In this document: positions 11,765 through 21,861 of the stretch, in pieces
Layout: every line of letters begins with the position of its first letter
Numbering within the stretch: position 1 is the stretch's first letter
DNA from: a virus
Lineage: Duplodnaviria; Heunggongvirae; Uroviricota; Caudoviricetes
Length of the DNA stretch: 64,000 nt
IMG/VR virus record: IMGVR_UViG_2703718819_000006
Strand: one strand, 5' to 3'
Position numbers and translations under genes: made by a program
Notes under the pieces: model-generated
Databases searched by the model: none
What the model was told of the DNA's origin: nothing
What the model saw: the letters and a program-made list of their open reading frames with translations, nothing else

Positions 11765-12409
11765 TTACAGCGCGTCAGTGGGCTTTTTACGCGCTGCGTT
11801 TATGCTTATGACGCCAGCTTTTGGACGTGGGTCAACAAGGTTAAGCTCTTCTTCACTGTGGTATTCGAGGTCGAACTCACGTTTTACATGTCTGATGTAG
11901 ATTGCGGTGAGTAGGCTATCTTTGGTCAAAAAGTGTCCGTAGGATTTGCGGATCACTTCTTCAACCTTCTCGATTTTCTCACCACCCATGCAGAGGTGAT
12001 TAAACCGGCTGTGTTTCCGCAACATCTCGTCAACTGGGCCTGAGTAAACCTTGTCTACTTTCCCAAAACGAATGATTTTTCCTGTATCTGCGGATACAAG
12101 GCAAATCAGTTTGTCTGGTGATAAACGATCTCGCCACGTCACACCTGAACGGAGTGTGTTGAAGTAGGGGGCATCCAATCCGATGATCGGTTTACGAAAT
12201 GCGAGCAATGGAACGTACCTAATACAACTATTCAAATGAAAGTTCACACCAGCCTTATCAAGTTTAATTCTGGTTTCGTAGATCGGGCACTTCGCCGCTA
12301 TACCGCAGATATCACAAAGTAACTTCTGCTTATTCAGGTTGGAATTTGATTCGATAGTGTAGGAGCCGTCCTCAAGACGACGAACCCAGCGCGTGCGTTT
12401 TAGATCCAT
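11765..12409 (-). CDS. hypothetical protein (Cys-containing, possible zinc-binding)
   Basis: 214-aa ORF with CDICGIAAKC; no family recognised. Confidence 0.45.
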   Translation of the reverse strand: MDLKRTRWVRRLEDGSYTIESNSNLNKQKLLCDICGIAAKCPIYETRIKLDKAGVNFHLNSCIRYVPLLAFRKPIIGLDAPYFNTLRSGVTWRDRLSPDKLICLVSADTGKIIRFGKVDKVYSGPVDEMLRKHSRFNHLCMGGEKIEKVEEVIRKSYGHFLTKDSLLTAIYIRHVKREFDLEYHSEEELNLVDPRPKAGVISINAARKKPTDAL

Positions 12410-12568: not shown

Positions 12569-12610
12569 CCTCTAGCCGTTGCGGTTACTGGTCTGAAAGG
12601 GTGTTGCCAT

Positions 12611-12710
12611 CCACTATGGAGAGCAAAGAAACCTCTGTAGAGAGCTGAATAACCGCTATGAAGAGTAAAACAACCACTCTGGAGAGCTGTATATATCCAC
12701 TGTAGAGAGT
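12611..12710. repeat. iteron array A (5 direct repeats, about 21-bp period)
   Basis: CCACTATGGAGAGC / CCTCTGTAGAGAGC / CCGCTATGAAGAGT / CCACTCTGGAGAGC / CCACTGTAGAGAGT starting at 12611, 12632, 12653, 12674, 12697. Confidence 0.7.
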
Positions 12711-12720
12711 AGAGCACATT

Positions 12721-12880
12721 GTCTTTTATGGATAACTTAATGACTTAATTCTTCATTAACATACTGATATACATAGATATATTTTAAACTCTACTCTTAG
12801 TCATGATTCTTATGTCCTTAAATATCCACAGAAGAGTAGAGTTACCTGTTCTTGAAATCCTCTGATTTTTATCCACAGGC
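12721..12880. promoter_or_regulatory. AT-rich spacer with perfect DnaA box (TTATCCACA at 12869-12877)
   Basis: Visibly AT-rich stretch between the two iteron modules; consensus DnaA box at its right edge and a near-consensus ATATCCACA at 12822-12830. Confidence 0.45.
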
Positions 12881-12991
12881 CCGATCCAGTAATTCAGATC
12901 ACAAAGAGAACCAAAGAGACCCATAAAGACCCAATAAGATCCCCGCCCACCTCAAACCGTTGTGCCATCTGCCTTCAGACATGATCGATAT

Positions 12992-13110
12992 CCACTATAG
13001 AGAGCGAATAATCCACTATAGGGAGCAAAGCAACCACTATAGAGAGGAGAAAAACCACTATAGACGGTAGGATAACCGCTGTGATGAGTGCTACTATCCA
13101 CTGTAATCAG
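12992..13110. repeat. iteron array B (6 direct repeats, 21-bp period) immediately upstream of rep
   Basis: CCACTATAGAGAG-type cores at 12992, 13013, 13034, 13055, 13076 (degenerate) and 13097; preceded by GATC sites at 12883, 12897, 12938, 12983. Confidence 0.75.
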
Positions 13111-13151: not shown

Positions 13152-14207
13152 ATGAGCGAAAACGGCAATAAAAACATAGCGATCGTTGAAGCATTTTCAG
13201 AAACAGATAAAAAGACAGGCGAAGTTGTTACGTTGGTTCCTAACACTAATAACACTGTTCAGCCTGTTGCTTTGATGCGTCTGGGCCTCTTCGTTCCGAC
13301 GCTGAAATCGACATCCAGAGGAAGAAAGGGGCAAATGGTCTCTATGGATGCCTCTGCTGAACTCAAACAGCTGTCTCTGGCAAAAGCCGAAGGGTACGAA
13401 GACATAAGGATCTCTGGCCTTCGGCTTGATATGGATAACGACTTTAAAACGTGGGTGGGAATAATCCACGCGTTTGCCAAACACAAGGTCGTTGGCGATA
13501 CTGTCACGTTGCCGTTCGTTGAGTTTGTAAGGCTGTGTGGCATTCCGACCGCCAGGTCATCAGCGAAGTTACGCAAACGCCTGGACAGTTCGCTAAGCCG
13601 TATTGCCACAAACACCATCTCGTTCCGTAGCAAAGGCTCTGATGAGTTTTACGTAACGCATCTTGTGCAAACGGCAAAATATAGTGTCAAGCACGATACG
13701 GTCGAACTGAAAGCAGATCCCAAGATTTTCGAACTCTACCAGTTCGACAAAAAGGTTCTTCTGCAACTCCGGGCTATAAACGAACTCTCAAGAAAAGAAT
13801 CCGCTCAGGCGCTTTATACTTTTATTGAAAGTTTGCCGCCTGATCCGGCACCAATATCACTAGCCCGTTTACGCGCCAGACTTAATCTGACAAGTCGCAC
13901 TATTACTCAGAATGCGACGGTAAGAAAGGCTATGGAACAGCTGCGAGAGATAGGATATCTCGATTACACGGAAGTTAAGCGCGGAAACTCGGTCTACTTC
14001 GTCATCCACTATAGGCGGCCAAAGTTACGCCAGGCACAAATATCAACAAAAATCGATAATGATGAGACGGAATATAGCCTCCCAGATGAGAATCAAGATG
14101 ACATTATCGACGTTGTGCCTGACGAAAAAGAAGGCAAAATGGTCATGTTGAGTAAAGAAGAACTGGCACTTCTCGAAGAGTTGCGCAAGGCAAAGACTCG
14201 CAAATAG
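13152..14207 (+). CDS. repA: iteron-binding replication initiator (RepA/RepE-like)
   Basis: 351-aa plus-strand ORF flanked on both sides by iteron arrays; the segment [13 protein letters not shown]...[14 protein letters not shown] parallels the RepE region AMRLYESLCQY...IVSLKIDWIIERYQL as I recall it. Confidence 0.65.
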
Positions 14208-14212
14208 CCCAA

Positions 14213-14690
14213 CCACTGTAGTTAGTAGTAAGGCTCACTATCCACTGTAGTGAGCCTTACTTATATCTGTAATTCGCTATCCACTATAGTGAGTATCGTT
14301 ATCTGTTGATAACCACTGTAGGCAGTAGAATGCAAATACTGAATTAAATGTTAGTGATCACTAACACTGATGAAACAAGGGCTGCGAGGTTAGTGGTCAC
14401 TGGGTATCTTGGAAAATTTACTGTCTATAGTGGTTGTTGTCGCCCTCATCTTTGAGCGTATCCACTGTGGCGAGTGGATATCCACTGAAAACAGCAAAGG
14501 CTTACTCACCATAGTGGATACCCGCTGGACATCTCACTCCAATACTCACCATAGTGGTTGTTTGATGCGAATGAAAGGCTGTCTACTCGCTACAGTGGTT
14601 AGCAGATATGTAGGAAGGTTTTGTTACTGACTACAGTGGATAATGAGCTGGATACGAATGCGGTGAGCAGACTACTCACCGCAGTGGTTG
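14213..14690. repeat. iteron array C downstream of rep (at least 10 copies, both orientations)
   Basis: Forward CCACT(G/A)TAG copies at 14213, 14244, 14279, 14311; inverted C(T/C)A(T/C)AGTGG copies at about 14417, 14495, 14535, 14588, 14629, 14682. Confidence 0.7.
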
Positions 14691-14729
14691 GTGCTATTAG
14701 TGTATTTTCTTCAACAGACCCCAAAGTGT

Positions 14730-14909
14730 TCAGGCTTTTGTAGTCAGTTTTCCTGTTTCTGGATCGTACATACGCCATTCACGCCGCTGGTGGACGATAT
14801 ACCCATCTTCACGTTCCAGACGCTCAAGAATGCCAGGCTGCTTGAAACCCTTAGCACGCCAGTAGCCGCTTGTTTTCTCGATTTCCAGACCTGCCAGTGT
14901 TAATGCCAT
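14730..14909 (-). CDS. small hypothetical protein (59 aa)
   Basis: My translation MALTLAGLEIEKTSGYWRAKGFKQPGILERLEREDGYIVHQRREWRMYDPETGKLTTKA; its ATG overlaps the stop of the upstream gene (TAATG). Below the ORF-track size cutoff. Confidence 0.3.
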   Translation of the reverse strand: MALTLAGLEIEKTSGYWRAKGFKQPGILERLEREDGYIVHQRREWRMYDPETGKLTTKA

Positions 14910-15244
14910 TATCCAACCTCCTTGCAGTCATCGAAAAGGTAGCTTTGCTGAGAAGCGTGAACGCCATAGAAGCCCTTGTATTTGTTGTATACGAAGTGGT
15001 CTTCTCCGACGCCGGTTAATTTGCCATTACGGTTTGTGAGATATGGGGATGACAACACTCGATCGTCACGCACAACATAGAACTGGTCGCCGCTGTCTAC
15101 GACCATCGCTCCATATGGTGCTTTTATGACGTCGGTAAGAGCGCCATTCTTAACGTCGGCTACAGACATTTCACACTGATAAACAGTGGTGTCGGCCACA
15201 ACGATCGAAGAAAGGAACAACAGCGCAAATGGGATGGCCTTCAT
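14909..15244 (-). CDS. secreted (signal-peptide) protein of unknown function
   Basis: 111 aa; N-terminus MKAIPFALLFLSSIVVA looks like a cleavable signal peptide; no lipobox Cys. Confidence 0.55.
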   Translation of the reverse strand: MKAIPFALLFLSSIVVADTTVYQCEMSVADVKNGALTDVIKAPYGAMVVDSGDQFYVVRDDRVLSSPYLTNRNGKLTGVGEDHFVYNKYKGFYGVHASQQSYLFDDCKEVG

Positions 15245-15420
15245 GCTGCCACCTCTTTGATTACATCAAATGCTGAATTAAATACGAGCACGATAGCCAA
15301 AGCGTTTATGACTACGTCGTTCACCGGGGAAAAGACTTTACGAATGACACCAGTGAAAATGCAGTCGATGACAAAAGCTATTGACACGATGAGTAACAAG
15401 TATTCAATAAAAATCTTCAT
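15241..15420 (-). CDS. small membrane protein (59 aa)
   Basis: My translation MKIFIEYLLLIVSIAFVIDCIFTGVIRKVFSPVNDVVINALAIVLVFNSAFDVIKEVAA has two hydrophobic segments; stop overlaps the downstream start (ATGA). Confidence 0.35.
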   Translation of the reverse strand: MKIFIEYLLLIVSIAFVIDCIFTGVIRKVFSPVNDVVINALAIVLVFNSAFDVIKEVAA

Positions 15421-15459
15421 GATAGGTAGATACTAACTTATATAAATTTTACTGTAAAC

Positions 15460-15735
15460 TCACTCAAAAGTGCTGATGCTTAAAATACGCTCAAGATGTG
15501 CGGCATCTTCATCACTGATTTGTTGAGTCTCTTCTACGTACCAACAGTTGCCGTTATGCCAACAAACACCATCATCATCAACCATCACTGAATCAGCGTC
15601 ATGACCTGTATATTCAACGAGAATACGCTGGATCAGTGCGTCAGTTTCTTCGTCGTTAAGGCCATCGGCTTTGACCATAAAAAGCGGAAACACGTCATAG
15701 ACAGTGCTGGTAACGATTCGAACTAAAACTCTCAT
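15460..15735 (-). CDS. hypothetical protein
   Basis: 91-aa acidic ORF in a co-oriented gene array. Confidence 0.45.
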   Translation of the reverse strand: MRVLVRIVTSTVYDVFPLFMVKADGLNDEETDALIQRILVEYTGHDADSVMVDDDGVCWHNGNCWYVEETQQISDEDAAHLERILSISTFE

Positions 15736-15790
15736 GTGTTTTTCCTTTTGTGGTTAGTGTTTACTTATTTTGTTAGTTATGAATAGGCGA

Positions 15791-16216
15791 TCAATCATCT
15801 TGTTTAGGGAAAAACTGTTCAATAACTCTGTCAACGGCTGTGTCTATATGGAGTAGATGCCACACAACCATATCTTTGCTCCCCATGCCTTGTGTGAATA
15901 TCACGTCATACTTACGCCATGCGCAGTGGAACCAATATGCTGAGTCATCAATTGGTAAATCCTCTCCCGCCTCTTTGAAGTATTTCAGCAGCATTGCTTG
16001 CTCTGCCGTTGGCGTTGGACCTATTTCCTGAGCGTACATACGGATAAATCGCTGCCAGTCTGTCTCGTCGGTGGTCGGATCTGGTGGATTCATTTCGGCG
16101 ATAGCGTTTCGTAGCTGATGCGCCCAATCAGGTTCAGGAAAGCCTTTTGATACTTCATCATCAATAACATCCAGAGCCGCGTTTGCGGCATCGTAGAGTT
16201 TCTTAATTGCTGCCAT
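15791..16216 (-). CDS. hypothetical protein
   Basis: 141-aa ORF; acidic, Trp-rich; no recognisable motif. Confidence 0.5.
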   Translation of the reverse strand: MAAIKKLYDAANAALDVIDDEVSKGFPEPDWAHQLRNAIAEMNPPDPTTDETDWQRFIRMYAQEIGPTPTAEQAMLLKYFKEAGEDLPIDDSAYWFHCAWRKYDVIFTQGMGSKDMVVWHLLHIDTAVDRVIEQFFPKQDD

Positions 16217-16277
16217 GTTTACTTCTCCTTATAAATAGGAAAATAATCACCTTTGAAAAAATAAAGCAAAGATATAT

Positions 16278-16667
16278 TCACTCCGATACAAGACGTTTAT
16301 ATGCTTCGATGTCTCGACGTGCTTCACCGAGTTTTCTTCTTAGGTCCATATTTTCTGATTCAAGTTTTTCAATGTTTTTTTGGTATCGGCCACGATGTTC
16401 TTCCCAGGCATCCTGATATGCCTTCATATATGTCGTATTAGCCTTTCTTTTTGCCTGACGAACCGCGTGGTGATTTTCTACAAACCAGTCAGGGTCGTTA
16501 AATGCTGCTCTTGCGCATTTATACCAATAATCGGTTGACTCTCTGTTTAACCAATGAATGGTGATAAATGGTAATCGAATAGACAGAATTTTTCGTTTGG
16601 AATCTCGCTCACCAAACATATGCCCTTTTTTTATCTTTAAACCGAACCCAGGTTGAATTAAAAGCAT
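16278..16667 (-). CDS. hypothetical protein with C-terminal coiled-coil
   Basis: 129-aa ORF (true start may be the internal MFGERD); C-terminal heptad-like region. Confidence 0.45.
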   Translation of the reverse strand: MLLIQPGFGLKIKKGHMFGERDSKRKILSIRLPFITIHWLNRESTDYWYKCARAAFNDPDWFVENHHAVRQAKRKANTTYMKAYQDAWEEHRGRYQKNIEKLESENMDLRRKLGEARRDIEAYKRLVSE

Positions 16668-16687
16668 TGTCAGTACCTCAGATGCAT

Positions 16688-17428
16688 TTATGGCAGTAAT
16701 TCTTTACCGCTTTCCATTTTGGTGATAGAGACAGTAGGATCATCGTTAATGCATGATTCTGTGCCTAATGCTGCTAACCCTTTACGCATAACCGTGCCCG
16801 CAACATACGCCTCAATCTCCGCCTTTCCAGATGAGACAATTTCATCCATTTGTTCCTGCATTAATTCGGTAGCAAAGCACAGATTTTCAGGAAGGTTAGC
16901 TACAGCAGATGCTAGTTTTCTATATAGTTCTTCAAGGTCACGTTTTCCAGCTCTTCCTTTTTTCACAAGTTCACCTAGCTCTGAAACTTGCTGATTAAGT
17001 CGATCAATCTCACTATTCGTAGCGGCCTTTATTTGATCGTTGAATTTTTGCCGAATACTTTTTTGCTCGGCAATATCATGAACTCTAATTGAGTCTCCAA
17101 TGGTTTTATATGAAATAGTGCATGGCACACCTTCGCCCACTCCAAAACTGCTAACCATAGCAGCCCATTGTGCCTGGCTAAGTCTAATTTCAACTAAAGG
17201 CCGTCTATTGCAACTTCTTTGTGGGCGGGTTCGTTCATTGTCTAAGGACAGTTCCGCCTCGTAAACGCCTATTTCAATATAGTCTCTATGTTCCAGTTCT
17301 GAATCAAATAGGCGAATGCCAGTTGTGCTAACACGGCTTGTTTTCACAAGACCGAACGCTGGATGTGTTTGAATTTTTTCCCCATGTTTATTAAGGGTCG
17401 TTTTTGGTTCTTCAATTTTTCTTTTCAC
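16688..17428 (-). CDS. hypothetical protein
   Basis: 246-aa ORF; no motif assigned. Confidence 0.5.
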   Translation of the reverse strand: MKRKIEEPKTTLNKHGEKIQTHPAFGLVKTSRVSTTGIRLFDSELEHRDYIEIGVYEAELSLDNERTRPQRSCNRRPLVEIRLSQAQWAAMVSSFGVGEGVPCTISYKTIGDSIRVHDIAEQKSIRQKFNDQIKAATNSEIDRLNQQVSELGELVKKGRAGKRDLEELYRKLASAVANLPENLCFATELMQEQMDEIVSSGKAEIEAYVAGTVMRKGLAALGTESCINDDPTVSITKMESGKELLP

Positions 17429-17474
17429 CTTATTAACCTCTATGCTTCATGCGTAAAGCTAAATGACAATTTTT

Positions 17475-18299
17475 TTAATATCCGGCGTATTCGTATTCTT
17501 CATTTAGACCGTATTCTTGTGGAGTGATACCAGGACAACATAACTCAAAGGCGAACTTGCGCCATTTGATTTTTTCTTCTGACGATTGTTTGTTATTCGC
17601 CGGTGCAATGTAGTCATATTCCCATTTGCCGTTGCGAAGTAAAATGAATCCGCAGTTATTGCCGAAGTCTTCGTCTGCATAACGTATTACAAACTCAAGG
17701 TGCGGGAACTTTCTAGCCATCGCTTGATAAATTGGTTTTGGCATAGACCAGGCTGTTTCAAAGCGAATCACCAACTCACCACCAGTTGCGGCATGTCTTG
17801 CAAGACGTTTTTTATAGATTCGTTTTGCATATGCTCGAACGTGTGTATGGCGGAAATTATGGCCGTACTTAATACGTGTAGGGATACGTTTTACGGGCAT
17901 TTCGATGTTGTAGGCATTCCATTTTGTTCCCCAATTAGCTCGCGACCAGTCAAACCATGAGTAATAGCCATAGCGACGATAATTCTCAAGCCGCATAAGA
18001 GCCTGCTCTTTGATTTTGCGAATTTCCTTGCGTGTCATTCCTGATTCACGCATAGCTAATTCGATCTGTTCTGGAGTCTTTAATTCACCGAACATGTGGT
18101 CGTAAACTGTTTCGCCCGCCATTGCAGAGGCCATGCGCCTGATATGATTGTTTTCTTCCATTTCTATACTTTTCGGACGTCTGCAAATGGTATTAAAGTC
18201 AATTAGACCTTTTTTGTTAGTTATGGCACGTATGAAATCTAAGCGTTGTTTATTTGTACCACCTATGACTCGGATTTCGTTTGTAATGTGGTTGGGCAT
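17475..18299 (-). CDS. hypothetical protein (Trp/Tyr-rich motif YSWFDWSRANWGTKWNAYN)
   Basis: 274-aa ORF; preceded by an AACAATTTGTT palindrome 20-40 bp upstream. Confidence 0.5.
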   Translation of the reverse strand: MPNHITNEIRVIGGTNKQRLDFIRAITNKKGLIDFNTICRRPKSIEMEENNHIRRMASAMAGETVYDHMFGELKTPEQIELAMRESGMTRKEIRKIKEQALMRLENYRRYGYYSWFDWSRANWGTKWNAYNIEMPVKRIPTRIKYGHNFRHTHVRAYAKRIYKKRLARHAATGGELVIRFETAWSMPKPIYQAMARKFPHLEFVIRYADEDFGNNCGFILLRNGKWEYDYIAPANNKQSSEEKIKWRKFAFELCCPGITPQEYGLNEEYEYAGY

Positions 18300-18350
18300 A
18301 ATTAACTTAACCTTTTAACAAATTGTTTTCTTGTGTGTGATAATAACGAG

Positions 18351-18376
18351 AATAAAACGGCGTCCAACTGGACGCC
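18351..18376 (-). terminator. rho-independent terminator after SPFH gene
   Basis: Stem GGCGTCC/GGACGCC with AACT loop, followed on the minus strand by GTTTTATT. Confidence 0.6.
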
Positions 18377-19521: not shown

Positions 19522-21861
19522 TTACTCTTCTACTGACTCGGTGGGATTGTCTTTTGATCTCCGGTCGTCGATTGCCTGTAAAGCCGCAATGATTTCAGCT
19601 AGTGGCTTCTCCCGATACATCTCGACGATCTGTGATTTGGTGTATTTCTTGTCACCAATTTCTACTCGACCGCTGGCGTTCTTTGGCAGGTATCCTTCTT
19701 CCAGCATGTACTCGACGAGCGACTCGATAACGTCGAGGCCACGAGTAGGATCGAAGTAGAATTTCCAGGTGCATTTGCCATACGGTGGTGCAACTTTGTT
19801 TTTGATGCACTCTGCGCCTACGTCCTGGCCGATCTTCTCTTTCCCATCCTTCATCACCGATGCACCGAGACGGATGCGCACAGAAGCGTAAAACTTCGGT
19901 GAATCGCCGCCTGGAGACGTAGTAGGGTCGCCAAACATTACACCGATTTTTGTGCGAACCTGATTCAAGAAGATGATGCAGGCGTTGTATTTGCGTGCCC
20001 ACAAAGCCAGAGTAGGGAAGTTCGCACTCGTCGCACGAGCCAGCGCCGTATTGTCGTTCATGTTTAGCTGATCTTTGTCTTTGGCAGTGCCTTCAGCCAT
20101 CTTTTCGAACTTCTCGGCTTTGGAGTTCGGAACCATAGACGCAAGTGAGTCAGCCACGATACAGATAGGTGCTGATTCAGGAATAAGCTCTTCATCACGT
20201 ACCAATTTAAGAATTGTGCCGATCAACTCTACAGAGTCTTCGAAGGTATCAGGCTGCTTGTATACCCACTGACCGTCATCCTCATCTGCATTCAAACCAT
20301 TGGCTACAGCCAGGCCAACGTCAAAACTGTTTTCATGATCGAGGAATACCGCCAGACCATCTTGTTTTTGAGCGGAGATCATCGCTGCTGTTGCAAGGAA
20401 TGTGTTGTGGCTGATAATCCCGTTAGACCAGAAAGAGTGTGTTTCCGGCATCGCTACGTCGAACGTTGGTGCTTCACCTTCCTCAATAGCCACGACTTCG
20501 TCGTAGAACAAGTTAGAGCCAATTACCGCTGCCAGTTGTGCAAACAGATGCTCGTTAAAACGATTCTTTCTGCCAATGAAGGAGACATAGATTTCTCGCA
20601 GTTTGTCTATTCCGACACGATCGCCGCGGCCAATAACGTGGTCTACCAGAGCGTAGTCTTCACGGGTGGTCTTGGTGAGCGACTCGTAGAGTGATTTCAC
20701 TAAGCCGCTGATGTGCGGAACATAGCCTGAGTAAGTGCGGTCAAAACCAATGTCCCGTTTGGTTGCCACTGATAAACGTGCCGGAGATTCGAAACCAATC
20801 GTTGACAGAAAAAGGTCGTAATTAGAGCCACTGAATGACAGCCGGTAATATGTATTTTCATAACCCGCGACGTGTTTTTCAGAGATAGTTGACGTAATCC
20901 CCAGATTCAGGAGCATGAGGCGAATTTGCTGTAGCAGCAGCCCACTCGCGCTCACAACCTCAATGCAGCGACCATCATTGACGTGGCATTCCAGCTCAAA
21001 GTAGCCGCGAAGGAATGCAATTTGAGCCTCGCTATTGGCGCGACGCACACTCAACGGAACCTGCTTGCCAGCAGCTTTCTCATACTCCAGACCATATTCT
21101 TTAAAAAGCAGCGAACGCACCTCTTTGCTAAACAGCACATGGTCTTCCGAGCCGTTATGTTTTCTCGTAACTGGCATCTTGTCTGATACCAGCGAAATGA
21201 GGCGGTAGTACTCATCCTTGATGAAAGGATCTGTGTTAGAAAAATTCACTGAATTTTCAGAGGCCACGTATCCGTCAGCAATTAAATAGCCCATCAGTTT
21301 TGCGATATTGGCATCCAGGTGCTGATCGCCGAATTGATGTGTGCCAACCATTGAAGGAATCGTGTCGCCTACACTGATTTTTTCAGCATGTCGCCAGACG
21401 ACATTACCTAAGTCGTCAACCACACGGATTGGGTGACGGAACGTAGCCTCGATATAACCGCCTGATGCCAGCTTAATACGCTTGAATTTGCGACGGTTGT
21501 TCCATGTCAGGTGTGAGGTCTTCTCTATCACGCCATTTTCATTGATGAGTCCAACGTTATGCTCTACATCGCGAGTAGTGCATGTCGCTTTGTACCCTTC
21601 AATCTCAAACAACTCTTTCACTGTTACCATTCCACGCTCCGTCAGCAGCATGGTGTCTGCGGTAACACATTTCCCCGCGCTTGGAGGACCGAATACTTCT
21701 ACGATACGACCACATGGGAAACCGCCATCGTAACGACCGGAAATAGCTTTGTTTAACGGAGGAAAGCCTGTGTCAATCCAATGAGTTACTTTCTGAATTT
21801 CGTCGTTGCTACCGATTTTCTTTTTCAGAGCAAGTGCCAGTGCGGATTTTCCTTTTGCCAT
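19522..21861 (-). CDS. recA: RecA/UvsX-family recombinase interrupted by an intein
   Basis: 779 aa. Exteins (about 357 aa) carry GRIVEVFGPPSAGK|T and IIFLNQVRTKIGVMFGDPTTSPGGDSPKFYASVRIRL, closely paralleling E. coli RecA as recalled. Confidence 0.85.
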   Translation of the reverse strand: MAKGKSALALALKKKIGSNDEIQKVTHWIDTGFPPLNKAISGRYDGGFPCGRIVEVFGPPSAGKCVTADTMLLTERGMVTVKELFEIEGYKATCTTRDVEHNVGLINENGVIEKTSHLTWNNRRKFKRIKLASGGYIEATFRHPIRVVDDLGNVVWRHAEKISVGDTIPSMVGTHQFGDQHLDANIAKLMGYLIADGYVASENSVNFSNTDPFIKDEYYRLISLVSDKMPVTRKHNGSEDHVLFSKEVRSLLFKEYGLEYEKAAGKQVPLSVRRANSEAQIAFLRGYFELECHVNDGRCIEVVSASGLLLQQIRLMLLNLGITSTISEKHVAGYENTYYRLSFSGSNYDLFLSTIGFESPARLSVATKRDIGFDRTYSGYVPHISGLVKSLYESLTKTTREDYALVDHVIGRGDRVGIDKLREIYVSFIGRKNRFNEHLFAQLAAVIGSNLFYDEVVAIEEGEAPTFDVAMPETHSFWSNGIISHNTFLATAAMISAQKQDGLAVFLDHENSFDVGLAVANGLNADEDDGQWVYKQPDTFEDSVELIGTILKLVRDEELIPESAPICIVADSLASMVPNSKAEKFEKMAEGTAKDKDQLNMNDNTALARATSANFPTLALWARKYNACIIFLNQVRTKIGVMFGDPTTSPGGDSPKFYASVRIRLGASVMKDGKEKIGQDVGAECIKNKVAPPYGKCTWKFYFDPTRGLDVIESLVEYMLEEGYLPKNASGRVEIGDKKYTKSQIVEMYREKPLAEIIAALQAIDDRRSKDNPTESVEE
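20404..21669 (-). mobile_element. intein (about 422 aa) with LAGLIDADG homing-endonuclease domain, inserted in the RecA P-loop
   Basis: Starts with Cys right after GPPSAGK (CVTADTMLL...) and ends ...GIISHN followed by Thr (the extein T of GKT); internal LMGYLIADGY and FLRGYFELEC motifs. Confidence 0.75.

Follow-up and report, generated by a model that had tools for sequence, protein, structure and literature searches.

A stretch of 64,000 nucleotides of the virus record IMGVR_UViG_2703718819_000006, referred to below as the window, was analysed at a block of genes (positions 14730 to 18299) lying between a plasmid replicon and an SPFH operon. The block contained eight minus-strand open reading frames (ORFs), from the stop-codon end of the first (14730) to the start-codon end of the last (18299), with no competing ORFs, gaps between genes of 61 nucleotides (nt) or less, and two overlapping junctions. 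The genes were numbered P1 to P8 in ascending coordinate order, P6, P7 and P8 being those for the proteins of 129, 246 and 274 amino acids (aa). Each of the eight ORFs matched a PHROG family, with E values from 1e-26 to 1e-105. Comparison with diverged orthologues in SSU5, plasmid AnCo3 and HK630 showed purifying selection, with 0.11-0.24 for non-synonymous change (pN) against 0.54-0.94 for synonymous change (pS) and a dN/dS ratio of 0.06-0.13 where calculable. Because of the PHROG matches and of non-synonymous change far below synonymous change, the eight ORFs are considered real genes. The original prediction, made for this block from the letters alone, had likewise counted eight genes between the replicon and the SPFH operon. 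Both the count and the flanks were borne out, the left flank being an iteron/repA replicon and the right one an SPFH operon; its inventory (a secreted protein, three small proteins and five others) sums to nine, and only two small ORFs, both of 59 aa, were present.

The window belongs to an E. coli phage-plasmid of the SSU5 type, a member of a well-known family, as established by DNA identity and by the same annotated neighbours across relatives. The region was 99% identical to Escherichia phage CMS-2020a and to plasmids including p09EL50 (E. coli O104:H4) and several Shigella sonnei plasmids, 98% identical over part of its length (the backbone described below) to the phage-plasmid Cyrano, and 75% identical to Salmonella phage SSU5. 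The annotated gene order common to relatives was SbcCD, repA, the block, an SPFH/stomatin-like gene with a small membrane protein, RecA, a 5'-3' exonuclease, a gp32-like single-stranded DNA-binding protein (SSB) and UvsY. Synteny of the replicon, the block, the SPFH operon and the RecA/exonuclease/SSB module was thus found together with high DNA identity, as is typical of the SSU5 supergroup backbone.

The block was made up of two parts and is not one system. These were a backbone of five genes (14697-16216) and a cassette of three genes (16217-18299), as listed in Table 1. The GC content at third codon positions (GC3) was 0.30-0.40 in the cassette genes and 0.39-0.55 in the backbone genes. 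Other members of the supergroup (SSU5, Cyrano/pLF82, PhiR41_1, and pHCM2- and pMT1-type plasmids) had the same arrangement of repA with iterons, Cra-like gene, secreted protein, membrane protein, 91-aa protein, DUF7238 protein, a slot of variable content, SPFH gene, membrane protein, RecA, exonuclease and gp32-like SSB, with 71-99% nucleotide identity over the five backbone genes, whereas the window differed from them in its three-gene cassette, a truncated Cra-like gene, a RepA variant common to few relatives, and a RecA intein.

Table 1. Positions and main properties of the block genes and of the features that bound them
Feature	Coordinates	Strand	Properties
Downstream iteron array of the repA replicon, left block boundary	14211..14692	.	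Repeat families D2-D6, ATCCACTRTAG-type, second half inverted
Cra-like gene, phrog_804	14697..14909	-	70 codons in relatives; 59 aa here (14730-14909), TGA at 14730-14732; phrog_804 E 1e-26
Secreted 111-aa protein, phrog_2077	14909..15244	-	N-terminal signal peptide (predicted), two Cys, stop overlaps Cra-like start
59-aa membrane protein, phrog_2535	15241..15420	-	Two hydrophobic helices (hydropathy), 4-nt overlap (ATGA) with next gene
Acidic 91-aa protein, phrog_2209	15460..15735	-	Isoelectric point (pI) 4.15, net charge -14
141-aa DUF7238 protein, PF23885, phrog_1451	15791..16216	-	pI 4.5
Spacer, downstream end of cassette	16217..16277	-	Carries Shine-Dalgarno TAAGGAGAAGTAAACATG for the DUF7238 gene
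129-aa basic protein, phrog_1511	16278..16667	-	C-terminal coiled coil, pI 9.8, GC3 0.32, phrog_1511 E 3e-76
246-aa protein, phrog_6452, without Pfam model	16688..17428	-	N-terminal beta domain 1-120; long helical hairpin 125-216
274-aa basic DUF1281_C/Api92-like ("YubB ferredoxin-like") protein	17475..18299	-	pI 9.6; PF18406 match
Leader and ribosome-binding region of the block	18300..18358	-	Conserved AAGAAAACAATTTGTT(T)AAAGG(G)TTAAG
Terminator-like hairpin closing the SPFH operon, right block boundary	18359..18376	-	7-bp stem, 6 GC pairs, T-rich tail

A variable slot behind a shared leader

Content of the slot was compared in 44 IMG/VR loci that span it. It was empty in 24 and held NinX in 15, while the window arrangement of the 274-, 246- and 129-aa genes was found in 2, the 274- and 246-aa genes with NinX in 2, and the 246-aa gene alone in 1. 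A sixth state was seen in plasmid CP056300, which carried all three cassette genes together with NinX. The variation lay between flanks 94-100% identical and its junctions fell at start codons, as is characteristic of an accessory hotspot. Among named elements, the slot was empty in Cyrano and PhiR41_1, SSU5 had NinX, and Salmonella plasmid AnCo3 had the 274-aa and 246-aa genes with NinX; Klebsiella elements contained the 246-aa gene and other small ORFs. The full cassette DNA occurred in only 25 PLSDB plasmid records and in 15 of 5,426 complete E. coli genomes, and was carried by about 14% of close plasmid relatives.

The 59-nt leader ended at the ATG of the 274-aa gene in the window. In cassette-less relatives the ATG right behind the same leader, AAGAAAACAATTTGTTTAAAGGGTTAAGAAAAT, was that of the DUF7238 gene, and in the window the DUF7238 gene obtained a different, strong Shine-Dalgarno sequence from the last 61 nt of the cassette. 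Because the cassette boundaries fall exactly at start codons, any occupant of the slot would be expressed from the same leader. The terminator hairpin of the SPFH operon on the other side of the leader was kept in Cyrano and in the IMG/VR relatives. In Cyrano (OV696614; L001 7706-7717), the codon aligned to the window DUF7238 ATG was ATA, whereas other cassette-less relatives had ATG; the DUF7238 coding sequence as deposited for Cyrano starts three codons further in, at ATT, which could reflect either mutation of the start codon or a fault of sequencing or annotation in that record.

Genes of the cassette

The 274-aa protein belongs to the DUF1281_C family, with a score of 57.8 bits for PF18406 over residues 171-242 (gathering cut-off 22.8), and PF18406 was present in all 118 homologues listed with a precomputed Pfam entry; the N-terminal 170 residues contained no second Pfam domain. 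Alignment of the family showed the invariant motifs MPNH (N-terminal), WGTKWNAY, FxTAW and ADEDxGxN, and the clade of the window protein had a 45-residue insert (residues 131-175) with 16 Lys, Arg or His residues. Invariant positions of the protein were N3, H4, D34, K126, N128, Y130, T182, W184, D209, E210, D211 and N215. Its fold was similar to the solved structure of Api92 of Yersinia pseudotuberculosis (PDB 2ijr), from which it differed in having only 15% identity and the extra Lys/Arg/His-rich insert, and a whole-protein relationship in sequence was not found, since neither phmmer nor a 25-sequence profile reached 2ijr at E<=1. The Api92 structure is itself without an assigned function and therefore the match gives a name and not a mechanism. 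The motifs and the insert look like those of a nucleic-acid-directed enzyme. One homologue was fused to LPD28, a polyvalent-protein domain. A literature search on the function of YubB or DUF1281 returned nothing. No link to the F plasmid is claimed from the name YubB; tblastn against 72,556 plasmids gave 47 records, nearly all non-mobilizable.

The 246-aa protein had no Pfam, NCBIfam or PADLOC match. An AlphaFold model from a 41-sequence alignment (mean predicted local distance difference test score 82.8) gave a beta-rich region at residues 1-120 and a helical hairpin at 125-216, with a conserved basic GKAGKR at the hairpin tip in the family consensus; no solved structural relative of the N-terminal beta domain was found. 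A profile search of 1.84 billion cluster representatives returned at least 4,101 clusters at E<=1e-3 and 2,410 at E<=1e-30 (clusters at 50% identity), with homologues in phages of Actinobacteria and of Alpha-, Beta- and Gammaproteobacteria, and a search of genome contigs gave only 5 loci in metagenome-assembled genomes. The homologue was carried by 125 phage genomes (phiCbK-like, Microbacterium, Certrevirus and Brevundimonas jumbo phages, among others), always within arrays of small early genes that had no conserved neighbour. Outside SSU5-type elements there was no neighbour family in common, and longer members of the family showed no informative domain fusions. In E. coli and Salmonella phage-plasmids the gene was accompanied by that for the DUF1281 protein. 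The two do not form an obligatory module, however: the 274-aa gene was found without the 246-aa gene in a Pectobacterium prophage, and the 246-aa gene without the 274-aa gene in Klebsiella phage-plasmids and in virulent phages.

Divergence of these two genes was compared with that of the backbone. In AnCo3 the 274-aa and 246-aa proteins were 66% and 62% identical to those of the window (backbone genes there 70-83%), and in Klebsiella the 246-aa protein was 45% identical (backbone genes detected there 27-45%). Because their divergence matches that of the backbone genes, both look like old residents of the slot.

The 129-aa gene had a different history. It was 82% identical in nucleotides and 81% in protein to HK630_055 and its counterparts in VT1-Sakai (H0039/H0040 region) and CP-933V, which places it in the nin family of lambdoid phages, where the homologue sits between ninE and ninF; NinE/NinF flanks were annotated in about 340 E. 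coli genomes. The family was restricted to Enterobacteriaceae prophages and phage-plasmids, and all its members were annotated as hypothetical. In the window the gene differed from the lambdoid arrangement in having no ninE, ninF or Q flanks and in lying inside a phage-plasmid operon next to recombination genes. An allelic patch was also seen, with 48 mismatches in 16300-16700 as compared with 0-2 per 100 nt in the flanks. Because of the 82% identity and the sharp patch, the gene is considered to be exchanged by recombination with lambdoid nin regions. The patch was about 12% diverged from two IMG/VR relatives (L019 and L024), indicating a recent gene-sized recombination. NinX/DUF2591, which fills the slot instead in SSU5 and many relatives, lies between ninE and ninF in P22.

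Searches for defence-related and structural relatives gave little. The component models of PADLOC-DB had no meaningful match in the block, the sole match being that of the 129-aa protein to LmuB at the coiled-coil level (E 0.007, 12.8 bits). Sequence searches of the PDB with P2, P4, P5, P6, P7 and P8 singly, and with family profiles of P7 and P8, gave coiled-coil or chance matches only, and they found no relative of the 111-aa, 91-aa or DUF7238 proteins. In the literature, no functional study turned up under the DUF names, the protein accessions or the nin gene names.

One interpretation of the slot is an anti-defence island, with each of the 274-, 246- and 129-aa proteins blocking a host immune system at an early stage of infection or induction; an arms race would then account for the patchiness. 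Its content varied at a fixed position, homologues of the 246-aa protein lie in small early-gene arrays of virulent phages of Actinobacteria and Proteobacteria, which are typical anti-defence sites, and the cassette genes had low GC3. The LPD28 fusion also fits, as LPD28 is a domain of "polyvalent proteins" proposed to act early in invasion (PMC5512222), and P4 and P5, their partners in the backbone, share a strong acidity with DNA-mimic inhibitors. However, no sequence or fold match to a known anti-defence protein was found, the fusion was seen in a single case, divergence of the 274- and 246-aa genes kept pace with that of the backbone, unlike that of recent acquisitions, and the invariant motifs of the 274-aa protein resemble an active or ligand-binding site and not an inhibitor surface. 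An anti-defence island is therefore considered possible but on the unlikely side.

The sole anti-defence system reported for SSU5-type elements, T5 Rad, was also compared. This anti-retron gene is reported in 16-22% of Escherichia and Shigella SSU5-type phage-plasmids (2025 preprint), and a cassette gene was suspected to be Rad because the cassette frequency of about 14% resembles this figure. T5.076, a TOPRIM-like ORF beside tRNA-Tyr (189 aa from an upstream ATG), is likely T5 Rad. Neither the window (tblastn, best E 3.2) nor any block protein gave a match to it, and there was no T5-like phage among the matches of the 246- or 274-aa proteins. Identity of a cassette gene with Rad was thus rejected on size, on distribution and on the direct BLAST test; if the element carries Rad, the gene would lie outside the window.

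The 246-aa family is the most promising single lead of the block, with the enzyme-like DUF1281 protein second. Rather improbably, and put forward here only tentatively, the 246-aa protein may act by itself as an effector that affects a conserved bacterial target in a new way (for example in host takeover or anti-defence), or possibly work with the DUF1281 protein.

Backbone genes, replicon boundary and neighbouring genes

The backbone (14697-16216) was matched by 787 plasmid records, and 414 of these covered at least 80% of it. Among them were plasmids of Yersinia pestis, those of pMT1 type included (71% nucleotide identity), and of Enterobacter, Citrobacter and Salmonella, with partial matches in Klebsiella. 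The DUF7238 protein scored 129.8 bits with the family hidden Markov model (gathering cut-off 27) over residues 16-137 and is a member of that family; its residues 46-136 recurred in 414 phage records, mostly of T4-like phages, rV5-like phages and Campylobacter myophages. The acidic 91-aa protein was confined to SSU5-type elements (6 phage records).

The remaining three genes, for the membrane, secreted and Cra-like proteins, were present as a trio in nearly every SSU5-type locus examined, and the small membrane gene was undetected only in the most diverged Klebsiella loci. Overlaps of 4 nt (genes 3 and 2) and 1 nt (genes 2 and 1) within the trio suggest translational coupling. Identity across loci was 51-100% for the membrane protein where detected and 27-100% for the secreted protein in all SSU5-type loci examined; the latter had a hydrophobic window at residues 3-22 followed by VVA/D.

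Could the envelope pair, perhaps with the SPFH protein and the 66-aa membrane protein of the adjoining operon, form a superinfection-exclusion or lysogenic-conversion module expressed by the prophage? The predicted signal peptide of the 111-aa protein and the two predicted transmembrane helices of the 59-aa protein would fit, as would the overlap of their genes, which were kept as a pair in SSU5-type loci, and the adjacent envelope operon (an SPFH lipoprotein-like gene and a membrane protein). The exclusion protein Sim of P1 is likewise periplasmic. Yet no similarity to any named exclusion protein was found, and the unit that contains the pair also encodes cytoplasmic proteins with relatives in lytic phages. 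The Cyrano orthologues of the five backbone genes (CYRAN_58-62) are not among the genes with lysogen expression of 5-fold or more over background (PMC9928086 Table 1), and their absence from this list argues against an exclusion role expressed in lysogens for the five genes. An exclusion or conversion module is thus quite improbable.

The Cra-like gene showed 43.5% identity to phage P1 Cra over 62 aa (E 1e-4, tblastn to the cra genes of phages P1, P7 and SJ46) and 82-100% identity among SSU5-type phages. Like P1 Cra it encodes a small basic protein of about 70 aa of the same PHROG, but in the window it does not give the full-length product of about 70-73 aa, as its codon 60 of 70 is TGA instead of GGA and the 11 C-terminal residues (GTLWGLLKKIH) are lost; the gene was intact in four relatives including SSU5. 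It also differed from P1 cra, which lies beside cre, in having no adjacent cre and in lying between the coupled secreted-protein gene and the replicon iterons, a location that was the same in SSU5, Cyrano and AnCo3.

The replicon consisted of repA (13152-14207, plus strand) between two iteron arrays at 12600-13110 and 14211-14692 (ATCCACTRTAGAG-type), with 5 nt separating the last iteron from the stop codon that the Cra-like gene originally had. Homology to the window ended exactly at 14697 in most relatives, in which RepA was only about 50% identical and yet the block was 96-100% identical. This break and the diverged RepA indicate that the replicon was swapped with a breakpoint at 14697, and that the left edge of the block is a module boundary across which replicons are exchanged.

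The same boundary bears on the idea that the Cra-like gene and its two upstream partners serve in plasmid replication or copy-number control. The trio adjoins repA in every SSU5-type locus examined, at the short distance from the last iteron given above, and the annotators of Cyrano label Cra a putative regulatory protein. The replicon, however, is swapped independently of the trio, which was 98-100% identical in most relatives with a diverged RepA; the Cra-like gene is truncated in an otherwise intact element, and P1 cra is non-essential (PMC10695390) and lies beside cre and not beside the P1 replicon. A role in replication control is therefore very improbable.

Three further observations concern neighbouring genes. 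The RecA gene (19522-21861, minus strand, 779 aa) was split by an intein with a LAGLIDADG homing endonuclease, with domain matches to Intein_splicing at residues 73-486, LAGLIDADG_3 at 279-356 and RecA at 484-703. Cyrano had the same 2340-nt gene, while the RecA genes of pAVS0968-B, SSU5 and AnCo3 were intein-less (about 357 aa), and the intein is therefore polymorphic within the family. An SPFH protein 77-78% identical to that of the window was encoded by 35 IMG/VR viral contigs (L063-L097), which were without the block genes (save for a weak Cra-like match of 40% in L094), the 66-aa membrane protein and the window RepA; as these contigs carry SPFH without the block, the SPFH gene is in circulation in another type of element as well. 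Between SbcD and the replicon, a 214-aa ORF (11765-12409, minus strand) is annotated in Cyrano as "ASCH RNA-binding domain protein", and it had no Pfam match at E<=0.001.

A probable lytic-cycle accessory unit

The explanation that we favour, with a probability of roughly 60%, is that the block is a single leftward transcription unit, a composite of backbone and swappable slot, whose products are dispensable accessory proteins of the (early) lytic cycle. The block starts at the conserved leader just past the SPFH terminator and ends at the replicon iteron array. The distal five genes (DUF7238, the acidic 91-aa protein and the tightly coupled membrane/secreted/Cra-like trio) represent the family backbone, and the proximal three occupy the slot whose content varies among relatives, with the 246- and 274-aa genes behaving like ancestral genes often lost and not like recent imports. 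The 274-aa, 246-aa and coiled-coil 129-aa proteins most likely act on nucleic acids or host factors beside the RecA/exonuclease/SSB/UvsY module, while the membrane and periplasmic pair may act at the envelope; no joint mechanism would link the eight.

The early lytic timing is suggested by the homologues of genes 5 and 7 in strictly lytic phages and by the position of the block in the recombination/replication region. Early arrays of virulent phages (Certrevirus CR3, phiCbK-like, Microbacterium Quhwahvirus, T4-like and rV5-like) contained homologues of the 246-aa (125 records) and DUF7238 (414 records) proteins among small hypothetical genes, but had no neighbour in common with the block, and those phages are strictly lytic whereas the element of the window is temperate and plasmid-borne. 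Dispensability is in keeping with a Cra-like gene that is truncated and a cassette that is often absent, and also with the non-essential P1 cra and the dispensable lambda nin region (PMC10695390).

Several points weigh against this explanation. No convincing sigma-70 promoter was found in the 59-nt leader, and both the transcription unit and its timing are deduced. Charge, motifs and neighbourhood are the basis for proposing action on nucleic acids or host factors, the expression data for lysogens were obtained with Cyrano, which is without the three cassette genes, and the low GC3 of the cassette also fits a foreign origin of all three genes.

The original prediction had taken the block for accessory cargo, and this holds for the slot, which was variable in the 44 loci and contains a 129-aa gene common to lambdoid nin regions, but not for the five genes that form a conserved backbone in 414 plasmid records. 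Its suggestion of superinfection exclusion or anti-defence found no backing, given the lack of a meaningful PADLOC match and of a T5 Rad match and the Cyrano orthologues that are not lysogen-expressed. None of the proteins had been given an assignable motif; matches to DUF7238 and DUF1281_C and the resemblance of the first ORF to P1 Cra correct this. No structural protein was found among the eight, and the block is thus not a set of core proteins with structural roles, the finding that had been named as fatal to the prediction. Undescribed content had also been expected, and while the functions are uncharacterised, all eight genes belong to catalogued families (PHROGs, DUF7238, DUF1281_C, Cra). 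The block shows no feature outside known kinds, and dozens to hundreds of plasmids and phages in the databases carry this DNA under hypothetical annotations.

For annotation, the gain is a five-gene backbone unit common to pMT1- and pHCM2-type plasmids of Y. pestis and Salmonella, with a defined variable slot and one leader. The slot is a practical place to seek accessory functions in a phage-plasmid family linked to multidrug-resistant lineages of Shigella sonnei and S. Typhi. A function for the 246-aa family, for DUF1281/Api92 (structure solved in 2006) or for DUF7238 would annotate hundreds to thousands of phage genes.

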